A program made the translations under genes and the position numbers. Below, piece after piece: positions 7,418 to 33,306 of a stretch of DNA of 64,000 bases; position 1 is the first letter of the stretch, and each line of letters opens with the position of its first letter. Origin of the DNA: Anaerolineaceae bacterium (GTDB lineage Bacteria > Chloroflexota > Anaerolineae > Anaerolineales > Anaerolineaceae); the NCBI GenBank assembly GCA_003524305.1, contig DQHW01000029.1, positions 4,913-68,912 of the forward strand, in the 5' to 3' direction. Below the pieces are notes generated by a model, which saw only the letters and a program-made list of their open reading frames with translations, searched no databases and was not told the origin of the DNA.

Positions 7418-7551
7418 TATCTTCTCCTTGTAGAATAAGAATCAAACACACTTCGTTACCCGATAATCCTAAGCTGGCTTTTTTGTTTGGTTGGGTTCCT
7501 CCTTGTACTGTTCTCTGAATAATTATTAATAGAGTAAAAAAACCTGCAAAA

Positions 7552-8634: not shown

Positions 8635-8646
8635 GAAGTTCTCTCC

Positions 8647-10482: not shown

Positions 10483-10607
10483 TCATTTTCTCCTATTCAA
10501 AGCAAATTACCAGCTTCGGATCACGTTCAACAAAATGACTTACAGAAAAACAATCCTTTTCTAACTACCTTTTATCTTGAAAATCCTCCTAAACAAAGTT
10601 TTGTAAC

Positions 10608-11492: not shown

Positions 11493-11529
11493 ATTTTCTC
11501 CGATCAGGTTTTTGATTTAACAAATACCT

Positions 11530-12735: not shown

Positions 12736-12756
12736 AAGTCCTCAGTAATTACCGTA

Positions 12757-14343: not shown

Positions 14344-14364
14344 TGAAACTCCGTTGTTTACAAT

Positions 14365-15117: not shown

Positions 15118-15122
15118 TTTGA

Positions 15123-15854: not shown

Positions 15855-15962
15855 GGAATTTCCCTTTCGATCTGTAGAATGGACAGTCAAGAAAAACACT
15901 GAGAATAAATGACGAATTCAATTGCAAAAATAAAAAATGTGAATTTGTGCTTACAAATGTAG

Positions 15963-16010: not shown

Positions 16011-16058
16011 TTGACTTTCTTTTTTTTGTTTGCTATATTGTTGATGCACACGTGTGCA
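16011..16058 (+). promoter_or_regulatory. Promoter (TTGACT-17-TATATT) plus 14-bp perfect palindrome TGCACACGTGTGCA, a candidate LacI-family operator
   Basis: TTGACT at 16011-16016, TATATT at 16034-16039, palindrome at 16045-16058. Nearly identical to the module at 18767-18812. Confidence 0.6.
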
Positions 16059-16368: not shown

Positions 16369-18684
16369 ATGAATATTTTAGGTCTTGGATTAAGGCATGG
16401 GCTGAGTAATTTTGAGCAAATCGCCATCGTCGCCGTTTTGGTGATTTCTTGTGCCAGCCTGTTTTATGCCTGGATTTTGAGGAAATCTGTTCTCAAAAAA
16501 GACAAGGGGACCGAAAAGATGCAAGAGGTCTGGGATGCCATCCGCGTCGGGGCAGAGGGCTATCTCTCCAAACAGTTAAAAACAATTCTGCCTGCTATTG
16601 GCATTCTCTTTGTGGCTTTGTTTCTCTCTGTCTATGTGGTTCCCCCAAGCTCCGAAGCATTGGTAGAATTTCCCCCGGAGAAATTTAATACACAACTGAT
16701 CATTGCAATTGGACGCGCGATTGCATTTGTTTTGGGAGCATCGTTTTCTTTAATCGTCGGTCAATTGGGCATGCGCATGGCCATCCAGGCCAGTGTGCGC
16801 TCTGCATCTGCTGCCAGACGCGAATTCAACGAAGCACTTTCAATTGCCTATTATGCAGGTGCTTATACCGGCATGCTCACTGATGGGTTAGGACTGCTTG
16901 GCGGAACTGTCATTTTCATCATCTTCGGCAAAGCCTCCCCGGATGCCCTGCTGGGATTCGGTTTTGGCGGCACCTTGCTTGCCTTGTTCATGCGCGTTGG
17001 TGGAGGTATTTACACCAAAGCGGCAGACGTTGGCGCAGATCTTGTTGGCAAGGTTGAAAAAGACATTCCAGAAGACGACCCCCGCAACGCCGCCGTAATT
17101 GCCGACCTGGTTGGCGACAACGTGGGTGACTGCGCCGGCATGGCCGCTGATATCTTTGAGAGCTATGAAGTGACCATTGTCTCCGCTTTGATCCTCGGTC
17201 TGGCACTTTGGAGCACGGATCAAAACTTGAAATGGATTGTCTATCCGTTAATCGTCCGTGGAATCGGTGTGATCAGTTCAATCCTGGGGACATTTGCCGT
17301 ACCGATCTGGGAAAAATTTCCGATCAAATTCTTGCGCGCCCACGATGCTGAAGAATCCATGTTCAGGTCATATGAGATCTCCAGCATTAACACCATTATT
17401 TGGTCCTTCGTGGTTGCCATTTTGTACGCTCATGATTGGAAGCTGGCAGTATTAACCACCATCGGTGTGGGGCTGGCGGTTGCTTTCAACCCCCTGACTT
17501 CTTACTTTACGTCAACCAAATATGCACCGGTTCGTGAAATTGTAGACAGCACCAAAACCGGGCCTGCCACCACCATCCTCTCCGGTTTGGCTATTGGCAT
17601 GGAATCAAGTGTCTGGGCACTGCTGGTGATCGCAGTTGCTTTCTTTGCATCCTTGATGCTGTATACCGGGTTTGAATCAATCTACGTGCTTTACGGCATC
17701 GCCATGGTGGGTATCGGTATGCTCAGTCAAACGGGTAATAACGTGGCCATGGATTCATTTGGTCCGATCTCAGACAATGCCAATGGCATTGGAGAAATGG
17801 CCTGGCACGGTCAGACGGATGAAGTGACCCTAAAAGCGCGCCAGACCATGGCCGATCTTGATGCAGTGGGCAATACCACCAAAGCCATCACCAAGGGTGT
17901 CGCCATTGCGTCTGCAGTGATCGCTGCTGTCAGCTTGTTCTCATCCTTCATCACGGATGTGGGCAACGTCCAAAGAGGACTTGTTGCCAGCGGTATGAAA
18001 ATTGAAATCCTGGAATCGATCAGGGTGTCTGACACGAAGGTGTTCATCGGATTTTTACTGGGTGGTGCTTTACCCTGGTTGTTCAGCGCTTTGAATATCA
18101 AAGCTGTCAGCCGGGCTGCCACCAAGATTGTTGAAGAAGTTCGCCGCCAGTTCAAAATCCCTGGCATCATGGAAGGCACCAAGAAACCAGATTATGCAGA
18201 AGTGGTTGCCATTTCGACCGGCTCTGCTCAAAAAGAACTGCTACCTCTGGCTGCCATTGCTGTTTTGATGCCGCTGGTGGTGGGCATGGTTTTACAGGTT
18301 GAAGCGCTAGGCGGCTTTCTCGCCGGCGTCATCTTGAGCGGACAGTTGTTGGCGGTCTTCATGTCTAATGCCGGCGGTGCCTGGGATAATGCCAAGAAAT
18401 CTGTTGAAGATCAGGCGCGTGACATAATTGCCAACACCGGCAAGGGTTCTGACCGCCACAAAGCCGCCGTGGTGGGTGATACAGTCGGCGATCCGCTAAA
18501 AGATGCTGCGGGACCTGCCTTGAACCCGATGATCAAGGTGGTAAATCTCGTCAGCCTGATTGCTGCTCCTGTGATCGTCCGCTACCAGAACCTGGGCGTG
18601 GTCGGCTGGGTGATTGTGGCTCTACTGCTTGCCGCCATCGTGTGGGCAATCGCTGTCAGCAAGAAACCGGCAATTTTGAAATAA
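16369..18684 (+). CDS. hppA: Membrane-bound proton-translocating pyrophosphatase, K+-independent type
   Basis: 771 aa and polytopic. Motifs: DVGADLVGKVE, DNVGDCAGMAADIFESY, GDTVGDP. GNTTKAITKG at 17869-17898 carries the Lys/Thr signature of K+-independent H+-PPases. RBS AGGAGG lies upstream. Confidence 0.9.
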   Translation: MNILGLGLRHGLSNFEQIAIVAVLVISCASLFYAWILRKSVLKKDKGTEKMQEVWDAIRVGAEGYLSKQLKTILPAIGILFVALFLSVYVVPPSSEALVEFPPEKFNTQLIIAIGRAIAFVLGASFSLIVGQLGMRMAIQASVRSASAARREFNEALSIAYYAGAYTGMLTDGLGLLGGTVIFIIFGKASPDALLGFGFGGTLLALFMRVGGGIYTKAADVGADLVGKVEKDIPEDDPRNAAVIADLVGDNVGDCAGMAADIFESYEVTIVSALILGLALWSTDQNLKWIVYPLIVRGIGVISSILGTFAVPIWEKFPIKFLRAHDAEESMFRSYEISSINTIIWSFVVAILYAHDWKLAVLTTIGVGLAVAFNPLTSYFTSTKYAPVREIVDSTKTGPATTILSGLAIGMESSVWALLVIAVAFFASLMLYTGFESIYVLYGIAMVGIGMLSQTGNNVAMDSFGPISDNANGIGEMAWHGQTDEVTLKARQTMADLDAVGNTTKAITKGVAIASAVIAAVSLFSSFITDVGNVQRGLVASGMKIEILESIRVSDTKVFIGFLLGGALPWLFSALNIKAVSRAATKIVEEVRRQFKIPGIMEGTKKPDYAEVVAISTGSAQKELLPLAAIAVLMPLVVGMVLQVEALGGFLAGVILSGQLLAVFMSNAGGAWDNAKKSVEDQARDIIANTGKGSDRHKAAVVGDTVGDPLKDAAGPALNPMIKVVNLVSLIAAPVIVRYQNLGVVGWVIVALLLAAIVWAIAVSKKPAILK

Positions 18685-18766: not shown

Positions 18767-18812
18767 TTGACTTTCAAATTCTTGTTTGTTATATTTAATG
18801 CACACGTGTGCG
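18767..18812 (+). promoter_or_regulatory. Promoter (TTGACT-17-TATATT) plus near-palindrome TGCACACGTGTGCG, a candidate autoregulatory LacI-family operator
   Basis: TTGACT at 18767-18772, TATATT at 18790-18795, operator-like element at 18799-18812. It lies immediately upstream of the LacI-family gene. Confidence 0.6.
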
Positions 18813-18832: not shown

Positions 18833-19864
18833 ATGCCAGTCACAATAAAAGACATTGCCAAGAAAGCCGGTGTTTCACATACAACAGTATCTCGTGCATT
18901 GAACGGAAACCGTTCAATCCCCGAGAAAACGACGCTTACGATTTGTGAACTCGCCAAAGAAATGGGATATCTTCCCAGTGCCGCGGCCAGGGGATTGAAA
19001 ACCAATAAATCTCATGCAATCGGCGTCATTGTCAGCCGCATTGATAATCCCTATTTTGGAGAAATCCTTCAAGGGATTGAAGAAATTCTACAAAAAACCG
19101 GATACAGTTTGTTTGTTGCTTCTTCTCACCTGGAATTTGACAGCGAAAAGAATATTGTGCAGGCATTTGCAGAACACCGTGTGGATGGAGTGATCATTTG
19201 CTCGGTCACTTTTGGCTCGAAACATGCCGAGTTCTTAAAGAAATACGGCATGCCGATAGTGGTCATCAATAACCAATCACCAGAAGATTATCAATGTTCC
19301 ATCGCTAATGATGACGTGGATGGCGCACGCAATGTCACTCGTCATCTCATCACTCTTGGGCATACAGAAATAGCATTTTTAGGCAACGCCAGTGCGGATC
19401 GCATCAACGAAGACCGTTTGTTGGGTTTTCGTGCCGAAATCCAAAGAGCATCACTTCAAGTGAATGAAAAGTTCATTGTTAATTGCCCCGCCAGCGAGAT
19501 TGAAGATGGCGTACATGGCATGCAAGCATTGTTGAAATCTGAACCAAGACCTACTGCAGTCTTTTGTTTCAATGACCTGATGGCTATCGGTGCCCTAAGC
19601 GTGTTAAATACCAACAAGATTGCTGTTCCAGAAGAAATTTCCATCGCCGGATTTGATAACATCCCATATTCAGCATATACATGCCCTCCTTTAACGACAT
19701 TTGATCAACCCAAGCGCATGATCGGTGCAGAGGCGGCTCAAATGTTATTGGGCATTATCGATAATCCAGACAGCTCAAATACCACAGTACCGGTAACTCA
19801 TATGATGCGCGGACATTTATTGATCCGCGGTTCGACCAACGAAGTGCAAAAGAGGAGTTTTTAA
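18833..19864 (+). CDS. LacI-family transcriptional regulator (probable inositol-cluster repressor)
   Basis: The protein begins MPVTIKDIAKKAGVSHTTVSRALNG, a LacI HTH, and has a periplasmic-binding-protein-like C-terminal domain. ATG at 18833 is preceded by AAGGA. The track's TTG start at 18767 would lie inside the promoter. Confidence 0.85.
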   Translation: MPVTIKDIAKKAGVSHTTVSRALNGNRSIPEKTTLTICELAKEMGYLPSAAARGLKTNKSHAIGVIVSRIDNPYFGEILQGIEEILQKTGYSLFVASSHLEFDSEKNIVQAFAEHRVDGVIICSVTFGSKHAEFLKKYGMPIVVINNQSPEDYQCSIANDDVDGARNVTRHLITLGHTEIAFLGNASADRINEDRLLGFRAEIQRASLQVNEKFIVNCPASEIEDGVHGMQALLKSEPRPTAVFCFNDLMAIGALSVLNTNKIAVPEEISIAGFDNIPYSAYTCPPLTTFDQPKRMIGAEAAQMLLGIIDNPDSSNTTVPVTHMMRGHLLIRGSTNEVQKRSF

Positions 19865-20739
19865 TGACAACAACTGCATCCAACTTTCTTGTCAAGCCGG
19901 ATTTTTCTCATCCATTATATATAACCATCACCCCGGAAAGTGCCAGGTGGGAGCACCTCCATTTTGCGGCAATCAAACTAAAAAAAGGTCAATCCTGGTC
20001 ATTTGATACCACTGAGTTCGAATTGGCGCTTACCATCCTTGGCGGCAAATGCGATGTCACTTCTTCAGCAGCGAAATGGGAGTCAATCGGTTCTCGCGAG
20101 GATGTCTTTCACGGTATGCCGACAGCGCTTTACCTTCCCCGTAAGACTACGTTAACAGTAAAGGCAGTCAGCGAATCGCTGGATTTCGCCTGTGGATGGG
20201 CAAAAACCGATAAAGATTTTCCGGCGGTGTTAGTCAGCCCTGAGGATGTGACGGTTGAACTGCGCGGAGGAGATAATGCCTCTCGCCAGATCAACAAGAT
20301 GCTTCCGGCGGGCTTTCCGTGTGACCGGCTGGTGGTGGTGGAAGTTTATACGCCCTCTGGCAACTGGAGTTCTTATCCACCGCATAAGCATGATGAACGC
20401 AAGTTCGATGATCAGGGCAACCTGGTTGAAGCGGATCTGGAAGAGATCTATTTCTACAAAATTGATAAACCTGAAGGCTACGCCTACCAGCGGATCTACA
20501 CTGATGACCGCCGGTTGAATGAACTGATATTGGTGAGTGACAGCGAGGCAGTCCTTTCGCCCGAGGGCTATCATCCCGTTGTGGCGGCACCCGGTTACAA
20601 CGTTTATTACCTGAATATCCTGGCTGGCTCTGACCAATCATTGGCCAGCAGCGACGATCCTGCTTATACATGGGTCAAAGAGACGTGGAAGGAAATGGAT
20701 AAACGCCTTCCCTTAGTATCGATCAAGATGAATAAGTGA
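19864..20739 (+). CDS. iolB: 5-deoxy-glucuronate isomerase (KduI/IolB family)
   Basis: 291 aa, cupin-like, with the SSYPPHKHDE motif. It sits inside a cluster with iolD, iolE and iolG. Its start overlaps the lacI-family stop (TAATG). Confidence 0.75.
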   Translation: MTTTASNFLVKPDFSHPLYITITPESARWEHLHFAAIKLKKGQSWSFDTTEFELALTILGGKCDVTSSAAKWESIGSREDVFHGMPTALYLPRKTTLTVKAVSESLDFACGWAKTDKDFPAVLVSPEDVTVELRGGDNASRQINKMLPAGFPCDRLVVVEVYTPSGNWSSYPPHKHDERKFDDQGNLVEADLEEIYFYKIDKPEGYAYQRIYTDDRRLNELILVSDSEAVLSPEGYHPVVAAPGYNVYYLNILAGSDQSLASSDDPAYTWVKETWKEMDKRLPLVSIKMNK

Positions 20740-20754
20740 TCCAAGGAGAATAAA

Positions 20755-21843
20755 ATGGCCGAGTATAAAAGCAAGCTTCACCAAACTGTATCAACGACCC
20801 CAACCGATTATTGGAATGATTCATGTTCAATAGAAGAGTTGACTTATGCCATTGAAAATGGCGCAGTTGGGGCAACAACCAATCCAACCATCGTGGTGAA
20901 CGTTCTCAAAAAAGAAATGCATCTTTGGGAAGACCGCATTAAAGAAATGATTCGAGAAAACCCCACCTGGTCAGAATCTGAAGTCACCTGGAAGCTAATT
21001 GAAGAGATGGCAGTCAAAGGTGCCGAATTGTTGAAACCTACCTTTGATAAAGAAAAAGGCAAGAAAGGCCGCCTTTCCATCCAGACAAACCCGACTTTCT
21101 ACCGCAATGCGCAAGCCATCACCGAACATGCCGTTCACTTTAAAACCCTGGCTCCCAATATGCAAATTAAGGTTCCAGTTACCAAAGCAGGCATTTATGC
21201 CGTGGAAGAAGCAACCTATCACGGCGCCTCCCTCAATGCAACTGTGTGTTTCACTGTTCCGCAAGCTATTGCTGTCGCCGATGCAGTCGAGCGCGGTTTA
21301 AATCGCCGTGTCGCCGAAGGAAAACCCATCTCTGATATGGCTCCAGTCTGCACCATCATGGTTGGACGTACAGATGATTGGATGAAAGCAGTCTGCAAAC
21401 GGGATGGCATTGAAATTGATCCAACTTACCTGGATTGGGCAGGGATCGCCTGTATTAAACATGCTTATGCTGTGTTCCAGGAAAGAAAATACCGCACCCG
21501 TCTTTTAGCAGCAGCCTACAGACATTTGGGTCATTGGTCCGAATTGATCGGCGGCGATATCGTTTTAACCATTCCATACGAATGGCAATTGAAAATTAAT
21601 GCCAGCGATATTGAAGTCAAAGAGCGCATGTCAGACCCCGTGGATGCCAATATATTATCTGAAATGCTTGCCAAAATCCCCGATTTCCGCATGGCTTATG
21701 AAGTCAATGGCATGACCTGGGAGCAATTTGATAGTTACGGTGCGACCGTGAGAACCTTGCGCGGATTCATGTCATCCTACCATGAAGTTCAAGGTGTGAT
21801 TCGTGAGATCATGCTGCCCAACCCTGACGTAAAACCTGCATAG
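20755..21843 (+). CDS. Transaldolase-family class I aldolase-fold protein (atypical active-site residues)
   Basis: 362 aa. Motifs: GATTNPTIV, GRLSIQTNP, IKVPVTKAG (Schiff-base Lys region), NATVCFT, MVGRTDDW. See the findings for the Glu-to-Gln substitution. Confidence 0.7.
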   Translation: MAEYKSKLHQTVSTTPTDYWNDSCSIEELTYAIENGAVGATTNPTIVVNVLKKEMHLWEDRIKEMIRENPTWSESEVTWKLIEEMAVKGAELLKPTFDKEKGKKGRLSIQTNPTFYRNAQAITEHAVHFKTLAPNMQIKVPVTKAGIYAVEEATYHGASLNATVCFTVPQAIAVADAVERGLNRRVAEGKPISDMAPVCTIMVGRTDDWMKAVCKRDGIEIDPTYLDWAGIACIKHAYAVFQERKYRTRLLAAAYRHLGHWSELIGGDIVLTIPYEWQLKINASDIEVKERMSDPVDANILSEMLAKIPDFRMAYEVNGMTWEQFDSYGATVRTLRGFMSSYHEVQGVIREIMLPNPDVKPA

Positions 21844-21860
21844 AGAACCAGGAGAATTAA

Positions 21861-23723
21861 ATGACCACGATCCGATTAACTATGGCGCAAGCCCTCATCC
21901 GCTTTTTGAAAAATCAATACGTCGAGCGAGATGGAAAAGAAACCCCGTTCTTTGCAGGAGTGCTAGGCATTTTCGGCCACGGCAACGTTGCCGGCATTGG
22001 GCAGGCTTTGCAGGAAAATCCCGATTTTCGTTATATCATGGTGCGAAATGAACAGGCCGGTGTACACATTGCCAGTGGATTTACCAAAATGAAAAACCGC
22101 ATGCAGACCTTTGCCTGCACATCCTCCATCGGACCAGGTGCGACCAATATGCTCACTGGTGCGGCACTTGCCACGATCAATCGCCTTCCTGTGCTGTTGC
22201 TGCCCGGTGATATTTTTGCCCGCCGAAACGTGGCGCCAGTGCTGCAGCAGTTGGAATCTCCTAACACGCAGGATATCAGCGTCAATGACTGTTTCAAGCC
22301 TGTTTCGAGATATTGGGACCGTATCAGCCGGCCTGACCAACTGATTACTTCCCTGCCTGAAGCCATGCGCGTGTTAACTTCGCCCGTGGATACTGGTGCA
22401 GTGACACTCTCTTTGCCTCAGGATGTGCAGGCTGAAGCTTACGATTACCCAGAAGAATTATTTAACAAACGTGTTTGGCGTATTCACCGCCCAATGGCTG
22501 ACCGCAGCCGTCTGGAAGATGCCATCACCATGATCAAGACTGCCAAGCGGCCGTTGATCGTAGCTGGCGGCGGCGTCTTGTTTAGTGACGCCTGCAAGAC
22601 CCTTGATAAATTTGCACTTCAAACCGGCATCCCCGTGTGCGAAACGCAAGCCGGAAAAGGTTCCTTGGCATATAACCACACCTGCAACCTTGGGGCAGTC
22701 GGCGCCACCGGCACCCTGGCTGCCAACCGCATGGCGCATGATGCCGACCTGGTGATTGGCATTGGCACACGTTATTCCGATTTCACCACGGCATCCAAGA
22801 CGGCCTTCCAAAACCCGGATGTGAAATTTATCAACATCAACCTTTTTGAAATGGATGCCTATAAACACAGCGGCATCCCCATCACGGCCGATGCCAAGGT
22901 GACGCTTGAAGAATTGACCAGGGCTCTGAATTCATTCAAGGTACAAGCGTCGTATACCGGTGAAATAGCCTTATTAAAAGAAGCATGGGAAAAAGAAACA
23001 GACCGCTTGTTCAACCTGAATCATCTGCCTGTGCCTGCACAGAGCGAAGTCATCGGTGCAATTTGGGAAGCCGCAAAACCCAAAGATGTGATCCTTTCAG
23101 CGGCTGGCAGCCAACCCGGCGACCTGCACAAACTGTGGCGCACCCACACGCCCAACTCCTACCACATGGAGTATGGCTATTCCTGTATGGCCTACGAAAT
23201 CCCGGCCGGCATCGGCGTCAAAATGGCTGATCCCAGCCGTGAGGTTTTTGTCTGGGTGGGTGACGGCACTTACCTGATGAACCCAACCGAAATCGTCACT
23301 GCCGTTCAAGAAGGAGTCAAACTGACTATCATCGTGGTGGATAACCACGGTTTTGGCTCAATCGGATCGCTTTCAGGTTCCATCGGCAGCAGCGGATTTG
23401 GTACAAGGCTTAATCATCGTGACCCTGAAACGGATCAATTGGTTGGTGATCGCCTGGTGATTGATTATGCAGCTAATGCAGCCAGCCTGGGGGCAGTCGT
23501 CTTCACCCCCAACTCCATTGCTTCCTTTAAAGACGCACTCAAAAAGGCAAAAGCTGAAACGATTACCACTGTCATAGTGATCAATACCGATCGTGAAGAG
23601 AAGGTGCCGGGGTACGAGTCTTGGTGGGATGTAGCCATCGCAGAAACATCCACCATGCCTTCGGTTAAAAAAGCACGAAAAGCATACGAAGAGAATCGAA
23701 AGAAAGAAAAATTCTTTCTATAA
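21861..23723 (+). CDS. iolD: 3D-(3,5/4)-trihydroxycyclohexane-1,2-dione acylhydrolase (ThDP enzyme)
   Basis: 620 aa. The N-terminus IRLTMAQALIRFLKNQYVERDGKETPFFAGVLGIFGHGNVAGIGQAL closely matches my recollection of Bacillus IolD. A ThDP motif GDGTYLMN...NN is present. Confidence 0.85.
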   Translation: MTTIRLTMAQALIRFLKNQYVERDGKETPFFAGVLGIFGHGNVAGIGQALQENPDFRYIMVRNEQAGVHIASGFTKMKNRMQTFACTSSIGPGATNMLTGAALATINRLPVLLLPGDIFARRNVAPVLQQLESPNTQDISVNDCFKPVSRYWDRISRPDQLITSLPEAMRVLTSPVDTGAVTLSLPQDVQAEAYDYPEELFNKRVWRIHRPMADRSRLEDAITMIKTAKRPLIVAGGGVLFSDACKTLDKFALQTGIPVCETQAGKGSLAYNHTCNLGAVGATGTLAANRMAHDADLVIGIGTRYSDFTTASKTAFQNPDVKFININLFEMDAYKHSGIPITADAKVTLEELTRALNSFKVQASYTGEIALLKEAWEKETDRLFNLNHLPVPAQSEVIGAIWEAAKPKDVILSAAGSQPGDLHKLWRTHTPNSYHMEYGYSCMAYEIPAGIGVKMADPSREVFVWVGDGTYLMNPTEIVTAVQEGVKLTIIVVDNHGFGSIGSLSGSIGSSGFGTRLNHRDPETDQLVGDRLVIDYAANAASLGAVVFTPNSIASFKDALKKAKAETITTVIVINTDREEKVPGYESWWDVAIAETSTMPSVKKARKAYEENRKKEKFFL

Positions 23724-23753
23724 ATCATCGCACTTGACCAGAGGAGATGAAAC

Positions 23754-24767
23754 ATGAGTATTCGTATTGGATTGATCGGTGCAGGAAGAATGGGGAAGGT
23801 GTTTGCCAATACCCTGGCATTTACTGTCTCAGAGGTAGACCTGGTGGCAGTCGCCGACCCAAGTGAACAAGCCCTCGCTGATGTCAGCAATCGCTTTGGC
23901 ATCAAAAAAGCTTATAAAGATTACCGTGAATTGCTGGATTCAAAAGACGTGGATGTAGTGGTGATCACCACGCCCACAGGCACACATGCCGAGGTTATCA
24001 TGGCGGCCGCTGCTGCCGGCAAGAATATCTTCAGCGAGAAACCGATTTCTCAAGCAGTGAAACCCTGCGATGATGCCATTTTGGCAGTCAAACAAGCAGG
24101 TGTAAAACTTCAAATGGGATTCATGCGCCGTTTCGATCCGCCTTATGCGGCTGCCAAACAAAAGATACTTGAAGGCGCCATTGGCACCCCGGTAATGTTC
24201 AAGGCGATTAGTCGTGACCCGGGTTGCCCAAATCTTGAGTTTGCCAAACGAGTCAACAGCGGCGGGCTGGTGATTGATATGGGTGTTCATGACTTTGATC
24301 TGGCGCGCTGGCTGATGGGCAGCGAGATTATCCGTGTTTACACTGAAGGCACCTGCCTTGCATTTCCTGAGCTCAAGGGCGTGGGTGATATTGATAATGC
24401 GGTTATCAACCTGCGCTTTGCCAGTGAAGCTGTCGGCAATATTGATACAAGCCGCAATGCCGTCTATGGATATGACATCCGCACCGAGGTGCTCGGCACC
24501 GCAGGCAGTCTATGGATTGGCTATTTGCAGCAAACCCCCATGCTGATTCTCAACAAGCAAGGTGTTACCCACGACGTGGTTCCGTTTTTCATGGAACGTT
24601 TTGGATTGGCCTACGCTGAAGAAGTCCGCGCCTTTGTGAAGAGTATTGTCAATAATACGGATCCGAGCCCCACCGGCGCAGATGCCCGCGCGGCAACCGT
24701 GGCCGGCATAGCAGCCACATTATCACTGGATGAACAACGTCCGGTGCTGACCAGCGAAATCAAATAA
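23754..24767 (+). CDS. iolG: Gfo/Idh/MocA oxidoreductase, inositol 2-dehydrogenase-like
   Basis: 337 aa. Rossmann motif IGLIGAGRMG, the EKP motif, and iol-cluster context. Confidence 0.7.
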   Translation: MSIRIGLIGAGRMGKVFANTLAFTVSEVDLVAVADPSEQALADVSNRFGIKKAYKDYRELLDSKDVDVVVITTPTGTHAEVIMAAAAAGKNIFSEKPISQAVKPCDDAILAVKQAGVKLQMGFMRRFDPPYAAAKQKILEGAIGTPVMFKAISRDPGCPNLEFAKRVNSGGLVIDMGVHDFDLARWLMGSEIIRVYTEGTCLAFPELKGVGDIDNAVINLRFASEAVGNIDTSRNAVYGYDIRTEVLGTAGSLWIGYLQQTPMLILNKQGVTHDVVPFFMERFGLAYAEEVRAFVKSIVNNTDPSPTGADARAATVAGIAATLSLDEQRPVLTSEIK

Positions 24768-24791
24768 CTTATTCTATTTCGGGAGAGAACA

Positions 24792-25691
24792 ATGATCAAA
24801 ATTGCAAATGCACCATGCTCTTGGGGAGCACTTGAGTTTGACCTGCAAGGAAAGCCCGCTACTTTCGATGTGGTTCTGGATGAAATGCAGAAGACCGGCT
24901 ATGAAGGAACCGAATTGGGTGATTGGGGATTCATGCCCACCGATCCAGAGGTCCTCAAAAAAGAACTGGAAAAACGTTCCTTGACCATGCTGGGCGCTTT
25001 TGTTCCAGTGGCGCTCAAAGATGAAACCACCCATGCAAAAGGCGAAGAAGCTGCTCTCAAAGTGGCCCGCTTGTTATCCGCAGTTGAAGGGTCCTCACCG
25101 GTGATCGTGCTGGCTGACAATAATGGCAGCATCCCCGAGCGAACGCTTAATGCCGGGCGAGTCACGCCTGCCATGGGATTGAGCGATGCCGAATGGAAGA
25201 CTTTTGCCAAGGGTGTTGAACGTATTGCCAAGACAGTGAAGAAAGAAACCGGCATGCGCCTGGTATTCCATCACCACTGCGGCGGATACGTAGAAACACC
25301 TGCCGAAATTGATAAATTGCTTGAACTCACCGATCCCTCTCTTGTGGGTATTTGCCTGGATACCGGGCATTACCAGTTTGCGGGCGGCGACCCGGTGGCA
25401 TTTTTACAGAAGAATGCCAAGCGTGTCTGGCACATGCATTTTAAAGATTGTGAACCTGCCATTGCCGAGCTATCGCGCAGCGATGGTTGGGATTACTTCA
25501 AATCGGTTGAAAAAGGCGTCTTCTGCGAACTCGGCAAGGGTGCAGTAGATTTCAAGGCCGTAAAAGCAGAACTTGAGAAACAAGGTTTTGAAGGTTGGAT
25601 CGTGGTTGAACAAGATGTGCTCCCCGGAATGGGAAAACCCTTTGATTCAGCGCTGCGCAATCGTCAATTCATCAAATCCATTGGTTTATAA
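24792..25691 (+). CDS. iolE: Xylose-isomerase-like TIM barrel, inosose dehydratase-like
   Basis: 299 aa. AP_endonuc_2 pattern (FHHH, DTGH, HFKD, VVEQD). It lies between two iolG-like genes. Confidence 0.6.
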   Translation: MIKIANAPCSWGALEFDLQGKPATFDVVLDEMQKTGYEGTELGDWGFMPTDPEVLKKELEKRSLTMLGAFVPVALKDETTHAKGEEAALKVARLLSAVEGSSPVIVLADNNGSIPERTLNAGRVTPAMGLSDAEWKTFAKGVERIAKTVKKETGMRLVFHHHCGGYVETPAEIDKLLELTDPSLVGICLDTGHYQFAGGDPVAFLQKNAKRVWHMHFKDCEPAIAELSRSDGWDYFKSVEKGVFCELGKGAVDFKAVKAELEKQGFEGWIVVEQDVLPGMGKPFDSALRNRQFIKSIGL

Positions 25692-25702
25692 ACGGAGAGA
25701 AA

Positions 25703-26725
25703 ATGAGCAATCCTAGAGTTATCAAAGTAGGTGTAATCGGTGCCGGCCGTATTGGTAAGATTCATGCCGGAAACCTGGCCACACGCATCCCCGGGGTCGA
25801 AGTTGTCGCCATTGCGGACCCAAATGTAGATGCCGCAAAAGAATTGGCCGAGAAACTTCATGTTTCTGCATATTATGAAGATTACCGCAAGGTTCTCGAA
25901 GATAAATCCATTGAAGCAGTGCTGATTTGCTCCTCAACAGATACCCATGCCCGTTTCATGACCGAAGCGGCTGAAGCCGGAAAGCATATTTTCTGCGAAA
26001 AACCGGTTGATCACAGCCTCGAGAAAATTGACGCCGCACTGGCTGCTGTCAAAAAAGCTGGTGTCAAATGCCAGATTGGATTCAACCGCCGCTTTGATCC
26101 CAATTTCAAAAAAGTGCGTCAGATGGTCAATGAAGGCAAGGTTGGTGAGGTGCAGATCCTGCGCATTACGAGCCGCGACCCGGCTCCCCCTCCTGTATCT
26201 TATGTAAAAGTTTCAGGCGGCATGTTCCTTGACATGACCATCCACGATTTTGATATGGCGCGTTATTTATCTGGCAGCGAGGTGGTTGAAGTTTTTGCAG
26301 CCGGCGCCGTCATGGTTGATCCGGGCATCGGAGAAGCCGGTGATATTGACACCGCTGTAATCACCCTCAAGTTCGCCAATGGCGCCATCGGTACCATTGA
26401 TAACAGCCGCAAAGCCATATACGGATATGACCAAAGAGTGGAAGTATTCGGTTCCAAGGGGATGGTGGCTGTCGCGAATAACACTGCCAATTCAAGCATG
26501 TACAGCAGTGAAGACGGCGTATATTCTGAGAAGCCTCTATATTTCTTCCTCGAAAGATACATGGATTCGTTCATTGCAGAATTATCTGACTTTATTGATG
26601 CCGTTCGAGACGATAAACCGACACCTGTCACTGCACTGGATGGCCGCAAACCAGTGGTCATCGCCATGGCTGCAAACAAATCATTAAAAGAAAACCGGCC
26701 GGTCAAGTTATCTGAAATTGAATAA
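25703..26725 (+). CDS. Gfo/Idh/MocA oxidoreductase, second inositol dehydrogenase paralog
   Basis: 340 aa. VGVIGAGRIG and EKP motifs. Colinear with 23754-24767. Confidence 0.7.
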   Translation: MSNPRVIKVGVIGAGRIGKIHAGNLATRIPGVEVVAIADPNVDAAKELAEKLHVSAYYEDYRKVLEDKSIEAVLICSSTDTHARFMTEAAEAGKHIFCEKPVDHSLEKIDAALAAVKKAGVKCQIGFNRRFDPNFKKVRQMVNEGKVGEVQILRITSRDPAPPPVSYVKVSGGMFLDMTIHDFDMARYLSGSEVVEVFAAGAVMVDPGIGEAGDIDTAVITLKFANGAIGTIDNSRKAIYGYDQRVEVFGSKGMVAVANNTANSSMYSSEDGVYSEKPLYFFLERYMDSFIAELSDFIDAVRDDKPTPVTALDGRKPVVIAMAANKSLKENRPVKLSEIE

Positions 26726-26744
26726 GAGCAATAAGGAGTAAGTA

Positions 26745-28133
26745 ATGGTTGATGAAATTCTGGAATTGGTTGCAAAAGCACGCGCTGCCCAAAGTGTAGT
26801 GGAATTTTGGTCTCAAGAACGCGTTGATGAAATGGTGGCAGCGGCAGGTTGGGCGGCATACGAAAGATCGCATGCCGAAGCCTGTGCACGCTCTGCTATT
26901 GATGAAACTGGTATGGGTGTTTATGCCGACAAGATTGCCAAGCACCAAAAAAAGACTTTGGGCACTTTGCGCGATTTGCAAGGTTTAAAAACCACCGGCA
27001 TCATCGAAGAAAACAAAGAAAAAGGGTTGATCAAAATTGCCAAGCCTGTTGGTGTAATTGGCGCACTGACTCCCGTGACGAATGCATCATCAACTATTTC
27101 TTGTAATGGCTTGCCCATGTTGAAAACACGGAACGCCGTCATTTTTGCTCCGCACCCCAAGGCGAAAGTGACCTGCGGATTAATTGCAGGTTATATGCGC
27201 GAGGGTTTGAAACAGGTAGGTGCTCCTGAAGATCTAATCCAATATGTGCCGAACCCCAGTGTTGAAATGACACAGGAATTAATGAAACACGTTGATCTGG
27301 TGGTGGCTACAGGCGGTTCTGCGATGGTGAAGGTGGCATATTCCAGCGGAACACCTGCTTATGGGGTTGGCGCCGGAAATGCCGTCGTTATCGTGGATGA
27401 AACCGCTGACCTCGCGGATGCCGCCAACAAGATCCATCTTGGCAAAATCTTTGATAATGCCACCTCCTGTTCATCAGAGAATTCTGTGGTCATCCAGGCG
27501 GCTGTATTTGACCAAATGCTCAGCAACCTGAAAGCACTTGGCGGGCACCTGTGTTCGGCTGAAGAAAAAGCTCAATTGAAACAAGCCATGTGGCCTGATG
27601 GTACGCATCTGAGCCCCAAGGTGGTTGGCCAGCATGCCCAGAAGATTGCACAAGCGGCTGGTATAGCGGTCTCACCTGAGATCAAATTTCTCATGGTGCT
27701 CGGCGAAGCCGTGGGCAGTGCTGATATGTTCTCAGGCGAAAAGTTGTCTCCGGTGATGACGTTGTGGAAGTATGACGATTTTGATGCGGCAGTGGCATTG
27801 GTCACCGATATCACCCGCTACAGTGGTTATGGGCATTCCTGCGGCATTCATTCCACCAACCAGGAACATATCATGCAGTTGGCAACTCAAGCCAAGGTTA
27901 GCCGCATGATGGTGCGTCAAACCCAGGCATACGCCAACAGCGGTAATTACGACAACGGCTTGCCTTTTGCGCTCACCTTGGGCTGCGGCACCTGGGGAGG
28001 CAATATCACAAGTGAAAACGTGCATTGGAAGCATTTCATCAATACCACCTGGGTTTCCATGCCCATCCAACCCGTTTTGCCGGATGAGAATTTGATCTTC
28101 GGCGCTCATTGGAACAAGTACGGCAAGGTTTAG
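26745..28133 (+). CDS. Aldehyde dehydrogenase of the CoA-acylating (EutE/PduP/AdhE-N-terminal-like) class
   Basis: 462 aa. The N-terminus ILELVAKARAAQ...WSQERVDEMV and the catalytic-Cys region NATSCSSENS are typical of acylating ALDHs. It is not the MmsA/IolA type. Confidence 0.65.
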   Translation: MVDEILELVAKARAAQSVVEFWSQERVDEMVAAAGWAAYERSHAEACARSAIDETGMGVYADKIAKHQKKTLGTLRDLQGLKTTGIIEENKEKGLIKIAKPVGVIGALTPVTNASSTISCNGLPMLKTRNAVIFAPHPKAKVTCGLIAGYMREGLKQVGAPEDLIQYVPNPSVEMTQELMKHVDLVVATGGSAMVKVAYSSGTPAYGVGAGNAVVIVDETADLADAANKIHLGKIFDNATSCSSENSVVIQAAVFDQMLSNLKALGGHLCSAEEKAQLKQAMWPDGTHLSPKVVGQHAQKIAQAAGIAVSPEIKFLMVLGEAVGSADMFSGEKLSPVMTLWKYDDFDAAVALVTDITRYSGYGHSCGIHSTNQEHIMQLATQAKVSRMMVRQTQAYANSGNYDNGLPFALTLGCGTWGGNITSENVHWKHFINTTWVSMPIQPVLPDENLIFGAHWNKYGKV

Positions 28134-28171
28134 GTTATAGGTTTCCTTCAAAGACCTTTTTTCTTCCTCCA

Positions 28172-28202
28172 CTCAATAACCTGCCAACAGCAGGTTATTG
28201 AG
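28172..28202 (+). terminator. Stem-loop after the aldehyde dehydrogenase gene (13-bp perfect stem)
   Basis: CTCAATAACCTGC caaca GCAGGTTATTGAG, 39 nt after the stop codon. Confidence 0.45.
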
Positions 28203-28241
28203 TATTAAGGGATAATTCAGTCTCGCTGTCGAGGAGATAAT

Positions 28242-28961
28242 ATGACGTTGCAATATTTGTGGTTATCCATTGCGGCATTTTTTGCGGCTGCCCTCTCTGG
28301 CGCTGCCGGTTTTGGCGGAGCACTTTTGCTGCTGCCTGTGCTCGCCGGCACGGTTGGCACAATGCAGGCGGTGCCGCTGCTAACGCTTGTGCAGTTAATT
28401 GGCAACCTTTCACGGGTTGGTTTTGGTTTCAAACAGATCAAGTGGAAGCCAGTCGGTTTGTTTCTCGTTGGCGCTGTACCCTTATGCGTGGCAGGCGCAC
28501 TGTTGTTTGCTGAACTACCCAAATCAATCGTCAACCGCTGTATTGGTGCAGCTATCTTGTTTTTTACAGTTTTGAAGTTAAGTGGCATCATCAAACTAAA
28601 GCCAAGTAATACACTAATGGTGGTTGGGGGAGGTGTGGTGGGGCTTCTTTCTGGTTTGGTTGGCAGCGCGGGTCCGCTTGGGGCGTTCATTTTCTTGAAC
28701 CTCGGATTGACACCGGTGGCATACATCGCCAGTGAAGCGACAACTGCACTGGTCATGCATGGCGTAAAGACGGTTGTTTATCAAAGCATACTGACTATTG
28801 ATCCCAAGACCTGGATTTTAGCCGGAATGATGGGGATTGCAATGATCTTCGGAACCTGGGTTTCAAAACGGATTTTAGAGAAACTGGATGCCAGAAAATT
28901 TCAAATTTTTGTTTCAATATTGTTGATTGCCATGGCTGGATATATGGTTATCCATGGATAA
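28242..28961 (+). CDS. TSUP (TauE/SafE) family membrane transporter
   Basis: 239 aa with about 7-8 TM segments. It has Gly-rich repeats (GAAGFGGALLLLP and GLVGSAGPLG), one in each half, as in the TauE/SafE family. Confidence 0.7.
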   Translation: MTLQYLWLSIAAFFAAALSGAAGFGGALLLLPVLAGTVGTMQAVPLLTLVQLIGNLSRVGFGFKQIKWKPVGLFLVGAVPLCVAGALLFAELPKSIVNRCIGAAILFFTVLKLSGIIKLKPSNTLMVVGGGVVGLLSGLVGSAGPLGAFIFLNLGLTPVAYIASEATTALVMHGVKTVVYQSILTIDPKTWILAGMMGIAMIFGTWVSKRILEKLDARKFQIFVSILLIAMAGYMVIHG

Positions 28962-29042: not shown

Positions 29043-30272
29043 CTATTGAGTCAGCAGATTCACGGCATAAAAGTCGTGATAATCAGTGATGTTTTGGAAA
29101 ACGAACAAATTATCGAAGTTGTAAACAGACAATTCTTTGAAGGGAACAGCATCTTCAACTGGAGCAATGTCGCTGCGGCCTGAATATTGTCCGACCTGGT
29201 TCCAGGGTTCAAAACCCTCGGCGCTCAAAGCAAATTTCAGGAATAATTTGGCTGCATTTGGATGCGGAGCCTGGTTGATGATGGCCAAATAGTTATGTTT
29301 TTGTACACCAACAACAGGTGTCAAGCCTTCGCACGGCGCGAAAACTGCGTCGCCAGCGAGAACTTTGCGATATTTTGACAACGGAAGCCAACCCAGATTA
29401 TTGTCTGTTAAACCTGGGATAGCCATTGCACCCCATACATCGTCACCACCGGCAACACCAACAGGTTGATTCTGGGCAAATTTCTTAAGCCACATCCAAC
29501 CGGCATCAGGAGTATCGGCGTCAAGAACTATATCGGTGCCATAGAGTTCTTTGTACGCAGCGGCAAATTCATCGGTATGAGAAATTGCGCTCATCAGCAT
29601 GCCAAGATCTTCTGCGCTGTTGATGGGATCCTTGATGAAGATTTTACCCTTCCATTCGGGGTCAGTTAATTGCCACCAGTTGGTGATGGGGCAGGTTTCA
29701 TTCAGTTCGGTGTTGTACACCCAACCAAAGGTCTCGGTGCTGGCAGTTACAACGGGATTTTGGTTTTCTTCAGGGATTGCAGAAAGCAATTCGGCGGGGA
29801 TGTACTTCCAAAGATATTGATTTGGAACAAATTCACCTTCCAGGTCTGGCCCGCCAGCGCTGTACCAAACATCTCCGGTAAATGCGCCTGCTTTTTGTTC
29901 TTCGCGAACTTTGGTGATCACTTCTGCACCGCCCATATCGTTCGCTTCAAGAACAATATCGGGATATAATGTTGCCCATACCGCGGCAGCATCTTGGATG
30001 CGTGAAGAATTGGAGTAGATGACCAACGAGCCTTCTTCTTTTGCTGCAGCTTCAATAGCAGCCCAGTCTTCAGTATCAGAAAGATACGAGCCAAGACCAT
30101 TATCTTTAGCCCATTGTTCAGCAGCGCTGAGAGGTGCTTCGGTGGCAGCCGGAGCTTCGGTCGCTGCAGGCGCTTCAGTGACATCGGCGATTGGTGCCGC
30201 GGTAGGTTTTGCGCAAGAGACTAGAAAACTGATCACGAGTACGAGTGAGACTATCCAAAAAAGCTTTTTCAT
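29043..30272 (-). CDS. ABC substrate-binding lipoprotein, paralog of 6191-7417
   Basis: 409 aa. Lipobox FLVSC, a TEAPAATEAPAATEAP linker, and colinear similarity to the first SBP throughout (SAAEQWAKDN..., FTGDVWYSAGG, NETCPITN, DADTPDAGW). Confidence 0.7.
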   Translation of the reverse strand: MKKLFWIVSLVLVISFLVSCAKPTAAPIADVTEAPAATEAPAATEAPLSAAEQWAKDNGLGSYLSDTEDWAAIEAAAKEEGSLVIYSNSSRIQDAAAVWATLYPDIVLEANDMGGAEVITKVREEQKAGAFTGDVWYSAGGPDLEGEFVPNQYLWKYIPAELLSAIPEENQNPVVTASTETFGWVYNTELNETCPITNWWQLTDPEWKGKIFIKDPINSAEDLGMLMSAISHTDEFAAAYKELYGTDIVLDADTPDAGWMWLKKFAQNQPVGVAGGDDVWGAMAIPGLTDNNLGWLPLSKYRKVLAGDAVFAPCEGLTPVVGVQKHNYLAIINQAPHPNAAKLFLKFALSAEGFEPWNQVGQYSGRSDIAPVEDAVPFKELSVYNFDNLFVFQNITDYHDFYAVNLLTQ

Positions 30273-30397
30273 TTATTTCTCCTTAGTTTATGTAGGAAAT
30301 GATATGAAAAGTGAGAGGATCTTAGTAAAGTTTCTTCAGATATTACCTCCTTCTTGTCAACGGCAAGTAAATGAATTCAAGCATCCAACATTTTTCA

Positions 30398-30470
30398 CTA
30401 AACCGCAGTAATTAAATAGACCCTGGCTTTTTCATAAAGATTGGTTGCATCTTCATCGATAGTCGACCAT
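30398..30470 (-). pseudogene. Deletion relic of an ABC ATPase gene (retained RBS and ATG fused out of frame to the last ~20 codons)
   Basis: On the minus strand, AAGGAG-N9-ATG at 30470 reads MVDYR-stop. The +1 frame reads STIDEDATNLYEKARVYLITAV-stop. This matches the C-terminus of the intact ATPase (KDDINLYDKASGKLVNG-stop). At DNA level, AATCTTTATGAAAAAGCCAGGG versus AACCTCTATGATAAAGCCAGTG is about 18 of 22 nt identical by eye. Confidence 0.65.
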
Positions 30471-30485
30471 GTTTTTGTGCTCCTT

Positions 30486-32321
30486 TTATAATCCCAAGCC
30501 CTTTTCAAGACTGCCTTTACGGAATCGACTGATTAACCAGTTGCCTCCGAGGATTAATGCGATCAGCAAGATAATGACTGCGTCAGCTTTTTGTTCACTG
30601 CCATTTTCGGTGTAGCGCATGGTCATACTCGCCAAGACCTGGGTGGCTGGCGTGACCAACAGGATGATTAAGGAAAGTTCACGCATGGTGGTGATGAAAG
30701 ACAATAAGAATCCTGAAACAAATCCGCTTCTGGTAAGTGGAAAGATGATGCGCGTAAAACGGGTCCAGGCGTTTGCACCCGCCACTTTTGCAGCCTCTTC
30801 AAGTTCCCTCCCCACCTGCATCATGGCAGTTACGCCTGTCCGGCTCGAAAAGGGAAGGTTCTTGGCAACTGACACCACCACCAACAGTGCAAATGTTCCA
30901 TACAGCGGCGGAATTGGTCCAACCGGCTTTGCGAACATGGAGATAAATATGGCGCCAAAAGCAATGCCCGGTATGACATAGGGGATGAATGCTAATTGTT
31001 CTACAATTTTTGATAATTTCGTTCCACGGCCTTTGACTATGGCGTACCCTAAGATCACACCTAAAATTGCAGAAAAGAAGGCAGTCGAAAATGCCAATTT
31101 AACTGAATTTATGGCGCCTTTTATAATTGCGGGATTTCTAAAAATACCAGGTAATCCATCATCGATTGTCGAATCACTTTTTCCGATCCAGTGAACCAAT
31201 GAAAAATTGGCAAGACTGTAATCCCCCGAAGTTTTCATGAAGGTATTCCATAGTAATAGTGCAGCAGGAACAACAGCGATAATGATTTCAATGCCAATAA
31301 TGAGGACGGTAAAAAAGGGGCGCCACTTGCGCAGGTTGATCTGCTTGATGACCAGACCCCTGCCGCCGATAGTCTCAAAACTTTTCTTGGTGCCCATTGC
31401 TTTTTGATTGATATACACGGTAATAATGGCTATCGCAATCAACATGAGGGCTAATACAAACCCATCTGCTGTGTCGCCCAACTTCATATCGGCACGGATC
31501 ATGGTTGAAAGTGTGTAGTAGCGTACGGGAACACCGAGGATATTGGGGCCGCCGAAGGTGCCCATCACTCTTGAAAAAGTCATGATAAATCCAGATAAGA
31601 GTGCCGGCAGCACCAATGGAAAGGTAATCTTTCTTAAAATGCGCCAACGGTTCGCGCCCATCATTTCACCGGCTTCTTCAAGGTTTGAATCGATGGACAT
31701 TAATGCAGCAGAAACGAACAGGAAGAAAAAGGTGTAATAATGCAATCCGCTGCTGAACATGATGGGCACAGGACCATAAGCGAACCAATCTGGAGGGCTT
31801 ATGCCTAACAGGTATTCCACGATCCCGGGCGCGCCGCCAATGGTTCGATTCTTGAACATAACCGTCCAGGCCATGGATATGGTCCATGAAGGCATCATAT
31901 AGGGCACAATGGCAAGAATATTAATAATTTTTCTTCCCGGCATGTTCGTGCGCACAACAAACCAAGCCATCAGGCAGCCCAATGCCATGGCAATTGCTGT
32001 GGCTCCAGCAGAAACCACCAGCGAGTGTTGCAAGGGAACATAGAGCATAATCATGCTGATTTTTGATGACAGCATTCTGATCCAATGATAAAAAGTAAAT
32101 GCGCCAGTGGTGGCATCGGGAAACTTGATCAAGTCTTTTTCTTGAAAGGTAAGGGTGGTGGCCATCATGCGATAAAGCGGAATGATGATCAGGTAGATCA
32201 GCAATGCCAACATAATTAATGAGAGCAAGACATGTGGGCTGCCTATCCAACGTCCAAATCGTCTTGCGCGAGCAACTAACAATTGTTTACTATTCTTTTC
32301 AAGATCAATGTGGGCGGCCAT
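30486..32321 (-). CDS. ABC transporter permease, fused two-module, paralog of 8647-10482
   Basis: Colinear and roughly two-thirds identical by eye to the first permease, with two EAA loops. I prefer ATG at 32321 (MAAHIDLEK..., RBS AGGAG) because the track start at 32405 overlaps the rpiR-like gene. Confidence 0.8.
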   Translation of the reverse strand: MAAHIDLEKNSKQLLVARARRFGRWIGSPHVLLSLIMLALLIYLIIIPLYRMMATTLTFQEKDLIKFPDATTGAFTFYHWIRMLSSKISMIMLYVPLQHSLVVSAGATAIAMALGCLMAWFVVRTNMPGRKIINILAIVPYMMPSWTISMAWTVMFKNRTIGGAPGIVEYLLGISPPDWFAYGPVPIMFSSGLHYYTFFFLFVSAALMSIDSNLEEAGEMMGANRWRILRKITFPLVLPALLSGFIMTFSRVMGTFGGPNILGVPVRYYTLSTMIRADMKLGDTADGFVLALMLIAIAIITVYINQKAMGTKKSFETIGGRGLVIKQINLRKWRPFFTVLIIGIEIIIAVVPAALLLWNTFMKTSGDYSLANFSLVHWIGKSDSTIDDGLPGIFRNPAIIKGAINSVKLAFSTAFFSAILGVILGYAIVKGRGTKLSKIVEQLAFIPYVIPGIAFGAIFISMFAKPVGPIPPLYGTFALLVVVSVAKNLPFSSRTGVTAMMQVGRELEEAAKVAGANAWTRFTRIIFPLTRSGFVSGFLLSFITTMRELSLIILLVTPATQVLASMTMRYTENGSEQKADAVIILLIALILGGNWLISRFRKGSLEKGLGL

Positions 32322-32331
32322 GATTGGTCTC

Positions 32332-33228: not shown

Positions 33229-33306
33229 GCACACCTCTGTTCACCAGGCAAACTAAATTCGGATTTTTTGTTGGCATTTCAGTTCAACTAAAAGTGAAAA
33301 AATAAC

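Follow-up and report, generated by a model that had tools for sequence, protein, structure and literature searches.

A putative kinase-free variant of myo-inositol catabolism in Anaerolineaceae resting on a transaldolase-like protein

The window analysed here is a stretch of 64,000 nucleotides (nt) from an Anaerolineaceae bacterium (assembly GCA_003524305.1, contig DQHW01000029.1, positions 4,913 to 68,912, forward strand), to which all operon coordinates below refer. At 18833-28133 it carries an inositol catabolic (iol) operon without the kinase IolC, the aldolase IolJ or the dehydrogenase MmsA/IolA. Instead, the operon encodes a transaldolase-fold protein of 362 amino acids (20755-21843, plus strand; TAL hereafter, for gene and protein) and a CoA-acylating aldehyde dehydrogenase (26745-28133, plus strand). 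The operon probably specifies a variant of the myo-inositol pathway in which TAL would cleave 5-dehydro-2-deoxy-D-gluconate (DKG) in its unphosphorylated form, and the acylating dehydrogenase would take the malonate semialdehyde. We classify it as a known inositol pathway in a new variant, resting on an uncharacterised enzyme subfamily.

Distribution of TAL and IolC among inositol clusters

Among genomes with iolD, TAL and IolC almost exclude each other. Of 251 genomes sampled evenly across the class, a set that does not depend on the TAL query, 43 carry iolD; 26 of these have IolC only, 10 have TAL only, six have neither, and a single genome has both, on different contigs (odds ratio 0.023, Fisher p = 3.8e-5). 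The two genes also take the same place in the cluster, between iolB and iolD, as is seen by comparing locus L095 (iolB-iolC-iolD-mmsA-iolE-iolG) with locus L115 (lacI-iolB-TAL-iolD-mmsA-iolE-iolG).

The view from the TAL side was obtained by scanning one genome per prokaryotic species, which gave 73 loci with relatives at 50-91% identity. The initial annotation had proposed testing whether this gene co-occurs with iolB, iolD and iolE in other genomes, and it does lie within 10 kb of iolB or iolD at 56 of the 73 loci. These 56 span Anaerolineae and Caldilineales-type Chloroflexota, Acidobacteriota, Spirochaetota and one archaeal-labelled metagenome-assembled genome (MAG), and include the isolate Levilinea saccharolytica (L031). 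No class II aldolase was found within 10 kb at any of the 56 loci, and iolC is present at five. Since either IolC or TAL fills the same slot and the TAL clusters lack an aldolase, the simplest reading is that TAL replaces both phosphorylation and cleavage. Further, an aldehyde-oxidising gene accompanies 24 of the 56 loci, namely MmsA (15), an acylating dehydrogenase (five) or a tungsten-type aldehyde:ferredoxin oxidoreductase (AOR; four). Three unrelated families of such genes thus stand behind the cluster, differing by lineage, which fits the release of malonate semialdehyde.

Whole-genome searches extend this picture beyond the clusters. A bona fide IolC was found in eight of 50 TAL-bearing genomes and was absent from the other 42, L. 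saccharolytica among the genomes in which none was found. One of the eight, a spirochaete, has its TAL in a different context, with a canonical iolC-aldolase pair at another place in the genome. A physical link between TAL and the inositol enzymes is provided by a public protein of 655 amino acids (P0127), wherein a bona fide IolE (341 bits, residues 4-290) is fused to a TAL domain of the same Gln/Met type as the operon protein (residues 309-655). The core of the initial annotation, kinase-free cleavage of DKG through a Schiff base followed by an acylating dehydrogenase, is strongly, if indirectly, supported by several independent genomic observations, namely the near-exclusion of IolC, the shared slot, the lack of class II aldolases, the varied aldehyde-oxidising genes and this fusion; the free dihydroxyacetone that it named as a product fares less well, as discussed below. 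Collectively, the distribution points to many bacteria of several phyla that would split the ring-opened sugar without prior expenditure of ATP.

Cluster architecture varies around these themes. At four Anaerolineaceae loci (L015, L018, L022, L053) a tungsten-type AOR stands exactly at the position that the acylating dehydrogenase holds in this window. A sub-lineage (L023, L025, L030, L033, L082) has the cluster TAL-iolD-iolE-iolG with neither lacI nor iolB, the latter lying elsewhere in the genome; the cluster is followed by a nitroreductase-family gene and a 587-amino-acid protein with only a faint phosphoenolpyruvate-carboxykinase-like match. In the IolC-positive Anaerolineae clusters L095-L114, ordered iolB-iolC-iolD-mmsA-iolE-iolG, no class II aldolase lies within 10 kb. 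Three loci of one genus (L122, L123 and L124, in genomes G125, G166 and G230), from genomes without IolC or TAL, show iolD-iolE(-iolG) with no iolB within 10 kb and may represent a third variant; an unrelated PfkB-like kinase of 324 amino acids is encoded ~4 kb upstream. A 767-amino-acid 'fusion' at the TAL position in L069, L072 and L075 proved to be a spurious long open reading frame (ORF) in high-GC DNA; for P0153, a transaldolase-IolB fusion and a gene-calling artefact are both conceivable.

Absence of the canonical kinase, aldolase and dehydrogenase

The initial annotation had reported iolC, iolJ and iolA missing from the window and had suggested a search of the remaining genome. The finding extends to the whole assembly (3.58 Mb, 93.9% complete, Chloroflexota/Anaerolineae type, with its sequence occurring in sediment and groundwater metagenomes), where no canonical set was found. 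The best match to IolC (5-dehydro-2-deoxygluconokinase) in the whole assembly scores 118 bits against a cut-off of 300, and the best to MmsA/IolA scores 212 bits against 448.5. No IolJ lies near the cluster; the single class II aldolase of the genome is on another contig (C27:248500) with no iol genes around it. IolC is likewise absent from the two nearest relatives, L012 and L057, as is MmsA.

Two ways of explaining away a missing iolC were considered. The two best PfkB matches (117-118 bits) could be diverged IolC proteins; they look like ordinary sugar kinases and have no iol neighbours. Incompleteness of the assembly was rejected as the reason, as more than 20 independent related genomes, including that of the isolate L. 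saccharolytica, have no IolC.

Operon layout and gene identities

The eight genes at 18833-28133 lie on the plus strand and are packed tightly, with intergenic gaps of 11-30 nt and a lacI/iolB overlap of 1 nt, so that they form one operon. Gene identities were assigned by profile searches against Pfam and curated family cut-offs; iolB, iolD, the iolE-like gene and the two iolG-like genes, which the initial annotation had placed behind a LacI-family regulator, were all found where it had located them. The first gene encodes the LacI-family repressor (18833-19864; PF00356 and Peripla_BP_3), with an AGGA upstream of its ATG at 18833. It is followed by IolB, 5-deoxy-glucuronate isomerase (19864-20739; TIGR04378, 336 bits against a cut-off of 205), by TAL (PF00923, 142 bits), the putative DKG-cleaving catalyst, and by IolD, trihydroxycyclohexane-1,2-dione acylhydrolase (21861-23723; TIGR04377, 924 bits against 715). 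Two inositol dehydrogenases sharing 41% identity flank the dehydratase gene: an IolG-like paralogue (23754-24767; TIGR04380, 375 bits against 355) and IolG itself, inositol 2-dehydrogenase (25703-26725; 495 bits against 355). Between them lies the inosose dehydratase, a xylose-isomerase-like TIM barrel (24792-25691; TIGR04379), whose score of 225 bits is under the cut-off of 290, so that 'IolE-like' is the correct wording; the position of this gene is kept in related loci. The acylating dehydrogenase closes the operon. Both the transaldolase-family protein and the CoA-acylating dehydrogenase named in the initial annotation were confirmed by profile.

The transaldolase-like enzyme

TAL falls below all NCBIfam cut-offs for transaldolases and fructose-6-phosphate aldolases (FSA), its best score being 119.9 bits against 367 (NF002881). 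Its sequence was aligned with those of TalB and FsaA in the annotated K-12 record of Escherichia coli, of the other transaldolase encoded in the genome and of 32 close relatives. Invariant in the subfamily are Asp22 and Asn43 (equivalent to Asp17 and Asn35 of TalB), Lys139 (the Schiff-base lysine), Asn161, Thr163, Arg205 and Arg256, from which it follows that Schiff-base chemistry and the anion site are retained. Three further positions are equally invariant and differ from TalB: Gln110 stands for Glu96, Met202 for Phe178 and Ala254 for Ser226. The Gln110/Met202 pair is invariant in the 32 sequences and is kept in full-length family representatives down to ~30% identity. Glu96 and Phe178 are the mark of transaldolases and Gln59 and Tyr131 that of FSA, and residue swaps interconvert the two activities. 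With the Gln of FSA present and its Tyr absent, TAL is neither a classical transaldolase nor an FSA.

The AlphaFold model built on the alignment (pLDDT 94.9, pTM 0.92) has the transaldolase fold, with a TM score of 0.81 to 7bbx; its best fold matches are the long transaldolases of Neisseria and Corynebacterium (TM 0.80-0.81, ~22% identity). As the genome also encodes a housekeeping transaldolase fused to phosphoglucose isomerase, the operon TAL is an extra, diverged paralogue. The family is sizeable, with ~350 clusters at 50% identity matching TAL at E < 1e-30.

In a maximum-likelihood tree the iol-linked TAL proteins cluster together, and a distinct, well-supported sister clade is found in other sugar clusters. 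The sister-clade clusters contain no kinase, which suggests that another unphosphorylated ketose is split likewise; the genomes concerned lack Dak1. Loci of this clade (L056, L061 and L077; also L055 and L059) contain LacI, DUF4432, a sugar ABC importer, a fucose-isomerase-like gene and a tungsten-type AOR.

Proposed pathway and competing explanations

The substrate, acceptor and products in the following scheme are predictions. IolG, the IolE-like protein, IolD and IolB would convert inositol to DKG as in the known route. DKG would be left unphosphorylated; Lys139 of TAL would form a Schiff base with its C5 ketone, and the C3-C4 bond would be broken to give malonate semialdehyde. Judging from Fischer projections, DKG read from its C6 end would be a 2-ketose with the C3/C4 configuration of D-fructose, carrying a carboxylate where fructose-6-phosphate has its phosphate, and the retained arginine pair could bind this carboxylate. 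The bound C3 unit may then pass to glyceraldehyde-3-phosphate, giving fructose-6-phosphate, a step that we hold to be just short of evenly balanced. The SauS/SucD-like dehydrogenase would convert malonate semialdehyde and CoA to malonyl-CoA, and a Na+-translocating biotin decarboxylase encoded elsewhere could take malonyl-CoA to acetyl-CoA.

The C3 unit could have another fate. TAL could be an FSA-type retro-aldolase that splits unphosphorylated DKG into malonate semialdehyde and, by hydrolysis, free dihydroxyacetone, which a promiscuous kinase would phosphorylate. Every genomic argument for a branch without a kinase holds just as well for this scheme; Gln110 at the Glu96 position of TalB is an FSA signature, and the genome has a GlpK homologue (44% identity). 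However, the position of the catalytic Tyr131 of FSA is taken by the invariant Met202, no Dak1 dihydroxyacetone kinase was found in this genome or in 22 related TAL-positive, IolC-less genomes, this genome has no GldA, and the kinase-free clusters of the sister clade likewise lie in Dak1-less genomes. Transfer to glyceraldehyde-3-phosphate is therefore favoured over free dihydroxyacetone, the product given in the initial annotation, which becomes the less likely version; the retro-aldolase scheme as a whole appears unlikely.

It is still less probable that TAL merely stands in for IolJ as a class I aldolase, splitting DKG-6-phosphate into dihydroxyacetone phosphate and malonate semialdehyde, with the phosphate supplied by an unrecognised kinase or by imported inositol phosphate handled through the neighbouring phosphomutase/HAD module. 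Such a role would suit five Caldilineales-type loci where iolC adjoins TAL and iolJ is lacking, as well as the organophosphate importer and two iPGM-like genes upstream in the window, and with the uncharged Gln in place of Glu and Met in place of Phe, the region of the C1 pocket might have space for a phosphate. However, a DKG-6-phosphate aldolase should accompany the kinase, and TAL is strongly negatively associated with IolC (one genome with both against 10 and 26 with a single one); the 26 IolC-positive genomes do without TAL. Further, Caldilineales sister clusters of identical layout (L044, L050, L051) have no iolC, the active-site residues are identical in IolC-positive and IolC-negative lineages, and IolC and the phosphate module are both missing from the acidobacterial, archaeal and spirochaetal clusters. 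We also know of no transaldolase-family member that accepts a 1-phosphorylated ketose, which counts against this role.

Least credible, to the point of being very improbable, is that TAL, the SauS-like dehydrogenase and the TauE permease gene behind it serve some other sugar, sulfonated or not, as a module of their own lodged in an incomplete iol cluster, the missing iol genes lying in the unassembled 6% of a 93.9% complete genome. In favour of this, the dehydrogenase narrowly misses the SauS cut-off, the permease gene comes next, and in known sulfo-transaldolase clusters a transaldolase is accompanied by an aldehyde dehydrogenase and an exporter (PMC7491151). However, TAL sits between iolB and iolD with gaps of 15-17 nt, keeps that position in dozens of genomes where MmsA or AOR replaces the SauS-like gene and TauE is lacking, and occurs fused to IolE, and the lack of IolC recurs in the more than 20 related genomes mentioned above.

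Kinase-free cleavage by TAL has several observations to contend with. Nearly all genomes in the comparison are MAGs, so single absences are weak evidence, and the 73 loci were found by peptide patterns from the operon's TAL, so close relatives are favoured. In the Caldilineales-type loci with a bona fide iolC adjoining TAL, the enzyme could act on a phosphorylated substrate, or both routes could coexist. Where transaldolases have their general acid/base Glu, TAL has Gln110, as in FSA, which alone argues for aldolase over transferase chemistry, or for low activity; the GlpK homologue could phosphorylate dihydroxyacetone. The acylating dehydrogenase is in the cluster at only five of 56 loci and has two paralogues in this genome, so position is the one guide to its substrate. 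Transcript evidence was sought, and only DNA metagenome runs contain the sequence.

The acylating dehydrogenase and a route through malonyl-CoA

The dehydrogenase scores 577.2 bits with the equivalog model for SauS, the acylating sulfoacetaldehyde dehydrogenase, under its cut-off of 600. Its closest structure is that of SucD (8cei; 346 bits over residues 5-437), followed by AdhE N-terminal domains at 285-301 bits, and full-length homology to characterised CoA-acylating members (EutE, PduP, SucD, SauS and the AdhE N-terminal domain) was confirmed. SauS and SucD act on short aldehydes with an anionic group, and malonate semialdehyde is the carboxylate analogue of sulfoacetaldehyde. That the nearest relatives use anionic aldehydes favours conversion of malonate semialdehyde to malonyl-CoA. 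A dehydrogenase of this type should yield malonyl-CoA and not acetyl-CoA plus CO2 as MmsA does.

A possible energy-conserving sink for malonyl-CoA is suggested by a complete operon for a Na+-translocating biotin-dependent acyl-CoA decarboxylase on another contig (C43:90212-93820, equal to 6212-9820 of L090), comprising carboxyltransferase, OAD_gamma-like, biotin carrier and OAD_beta genes. At two Sphaerochaetaceae loci the order is acylating dehydrogenase, carboxyltransferase, TAL. Four loci (L012, L017, L026 and L057) have an acylating dehydrogenase at the same position as here.

The two paralogues of the dehydrogenase (68% and 65% identity) are encoded at C47:150230-155409 and C37:120208-124560. 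One lies beside a split transketolase and a GFO/IDH/MocA oxidoreductase, an arrangement reminiscent of transketolase-type sugar cleavage, and the other directly behind a class III aminotransferase. These settings are consistent with a family that would take (semi)aldehydes released by C-C-cleaving transferases.

Relation to known systems and significance

The canonical iol system of the Bacillus subtilis type (IolG-E-D-B-C-J-A) shares with this operon the clustering of IolG, an IolE-like protein, IolD and IolB under a repressor, and the same intermediates are expected up to DKG and malonate semialdehyde. It differs in that here IolC, IolJ and MmsA/IolA are lacking, TAL stands in the IolC slot and an EutE/SucD/SauS-type dehydrogenase would take the aldehyde. 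The closest parallel to the proposed chemistry is the sulfofructose transaldolase SftT/SqvA, which sets free an anionic aldehyde while handing a C3 unit on to glyceraldehyde-3-phosphate, so that fructose-6-phosphate is formed (PMC7491151). As in that sulfoglycolytic route, an isomerase would make an unphosphorylated ketose with an anionic tail, a C3 unit would be transferred, a dehydrogenase would oxidise the aldehyde and no sugar kinase would be needed (PMC7491151). The enzymes themselves differ: SftT/SqvA is of the short TalC type (~220 amino acids), and BmSF-TAL (8bc3, 226 amino acids) matches only residues 106-175 of TAL (E = 9e-9). The proposed substrate differs too, with a carboxylate tail and one carbon fewer.

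TAL shares with the classical transaldolases (TalB and the long type of Neisseria gonorrhoeae and Corynebacterium glutamicum, 3clm and 3r5e) its fold, the lysine, the equivalents of Asp17/Asn35 and Asn154/Thr156 and both arginines, and departs from them in low identity and in Gln110, Met202 and Ala254. FSA of E. coli (FsaA/FsaB) has Gln at the Glu96/Gln59 position, like TAL, and uses unphosphorylated dihydroxyacetone; it differs in having Tyr131 where TAL has Met, in its 220-amino-acid decameric type and in sequence (22% identity). The dehydrogenase belongs to the same CoA-acylating family as SauS and SucD (8cei), and malonate semialdehyde is the C3 homologue of succinate semialdehyde; it differs from them in scoring under the SauS cut-off and in sitting in an iol operon, not in a sulfoacetate or succinate context, and its substrate is putative.

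A full-text literature search, subscription journals not covered, found no description of a transaldolase-family enzyme in inositol catabolism. Inositol fermentation in Dysosmobacter is IolC-dependent with an FBA-type aldolase, unlike the route proposed here (PMC13311982), and gut studies report iolG/E/D/B without iolC/iolJ, an absence left unexplained (PMC13617567). Megamonas is among the gut taxa reported to lack the two genes.

If TAL replaces iolC and iolJ, a function would be found for a large family labelled only 'transaldolase family protein', and Gln/Met would join Glu/Phe (transaldolases) and Gln/Tyr (FSA) as a third catalytic arrangement. A carboxylated sugar acid would also come within the reach of the transaldolase logic known from sulfoglycolysis. 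In soils, sediments and guts, the inositol of phytate, lipids and osmolytes makes up a large pool of carbon, and genome-based surveys score its use through the presence of iolC and iolJ. Such surveys would then miss many degraders, about a quarter of the iolD-bearing genomes in the class sampled.

Promoter, operator and a link to pyrophosphate

A promoter (TTGACT-17-TATATT) with a 14-bp palindromic operator, TGCACACGTGTGCG, precedes lacI-iol (18767-18812, plus strand). The ORF list had begun lacI at TTG 18767; this start was rejected because the TTG is the -35 box of the promoter, and the ATG at 18833 given in the initial annotation is correct. A near-identical promoter-operator cassette with a perfect palindrome, TGCACACGTGTGCA, lies at 16011-16058 (plus strand), as found by sequence comparison, upstream of hppA, which encodes a membrane H+/Na+ pyrophosphatase (16369-18684, plus strand; PF03030, 791 bits; Na+-pyrophosphatase model, 906 bits against 912). 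The hppA-iol gene order is kept in L012 and L057. Given the shared cassette, hppA appears to be co-regulated with the iol operon, linking pyrophosphate metabolism to inositol catabolism. To probe the pyrophosphate link, the phosphofructokinase genes were inspected for type; of the three, one has a Lys124-type motif but a Gly104-type GGDGS, a mixed signal.

A genome-wide operator scan for a hidden kinase of the regulon returned only hppA, the iol operon and weaker sites, none near a kinase. One copy of the palindrome with two mismatches (C32:167441) lies 142 bp upstream of an ino1-like gene (C32:166208-167299, minus strand), the product of which resembles myo-inositol-1-phosphate synthase at its N-terminus.

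A broader view is offered tentatively, and we think it doubtful as a whole. The Gln/Met transaldolase-fold proteins might be an unrecognised, widespread class of transferases that move dihydroxyacetone from unphosphorylated ketoses to glyceraldehyde-3-phosphate. Anaerobes could thereby feed inositol, and in the sister clade another sugar, into glycolysis with no dedicated sugar kinase. In this organism, the malonate semialdehyde would be kept as malonyl-CoA, and its decarboxylation by a Na+-pumping biotin enzyme, along with the co-regulated membrane pyrophosphatase, might tie inositol fermentation to energy conservation by ion gradients or pyrophosphate.

Genes flanking the operon

The TauE/SafE-family anion permease gene (28242-28961, plus strand; PF01925) begins 108 nt past the dehydrogenase gene, beyond a hairpin: an inverted repeat at 28171-28203 (plus strand), noted on reading the sequence, may be a partial terminator. 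Membership of the permease gene in the operon is uncertain; L012 and L057, the two closest relatives, are the only ones to keep it behind the dehydrogenase gene. Further out, two paralogous modules (1-15899 and 29043-33972) flank the operon, each combining an RpiR regulator and HAD proteins with a fused ABC permease and a binding protein. The one upstream additionally holds two iPGM-like metalloenzymes, and related loci keep this module beside the iol genes.

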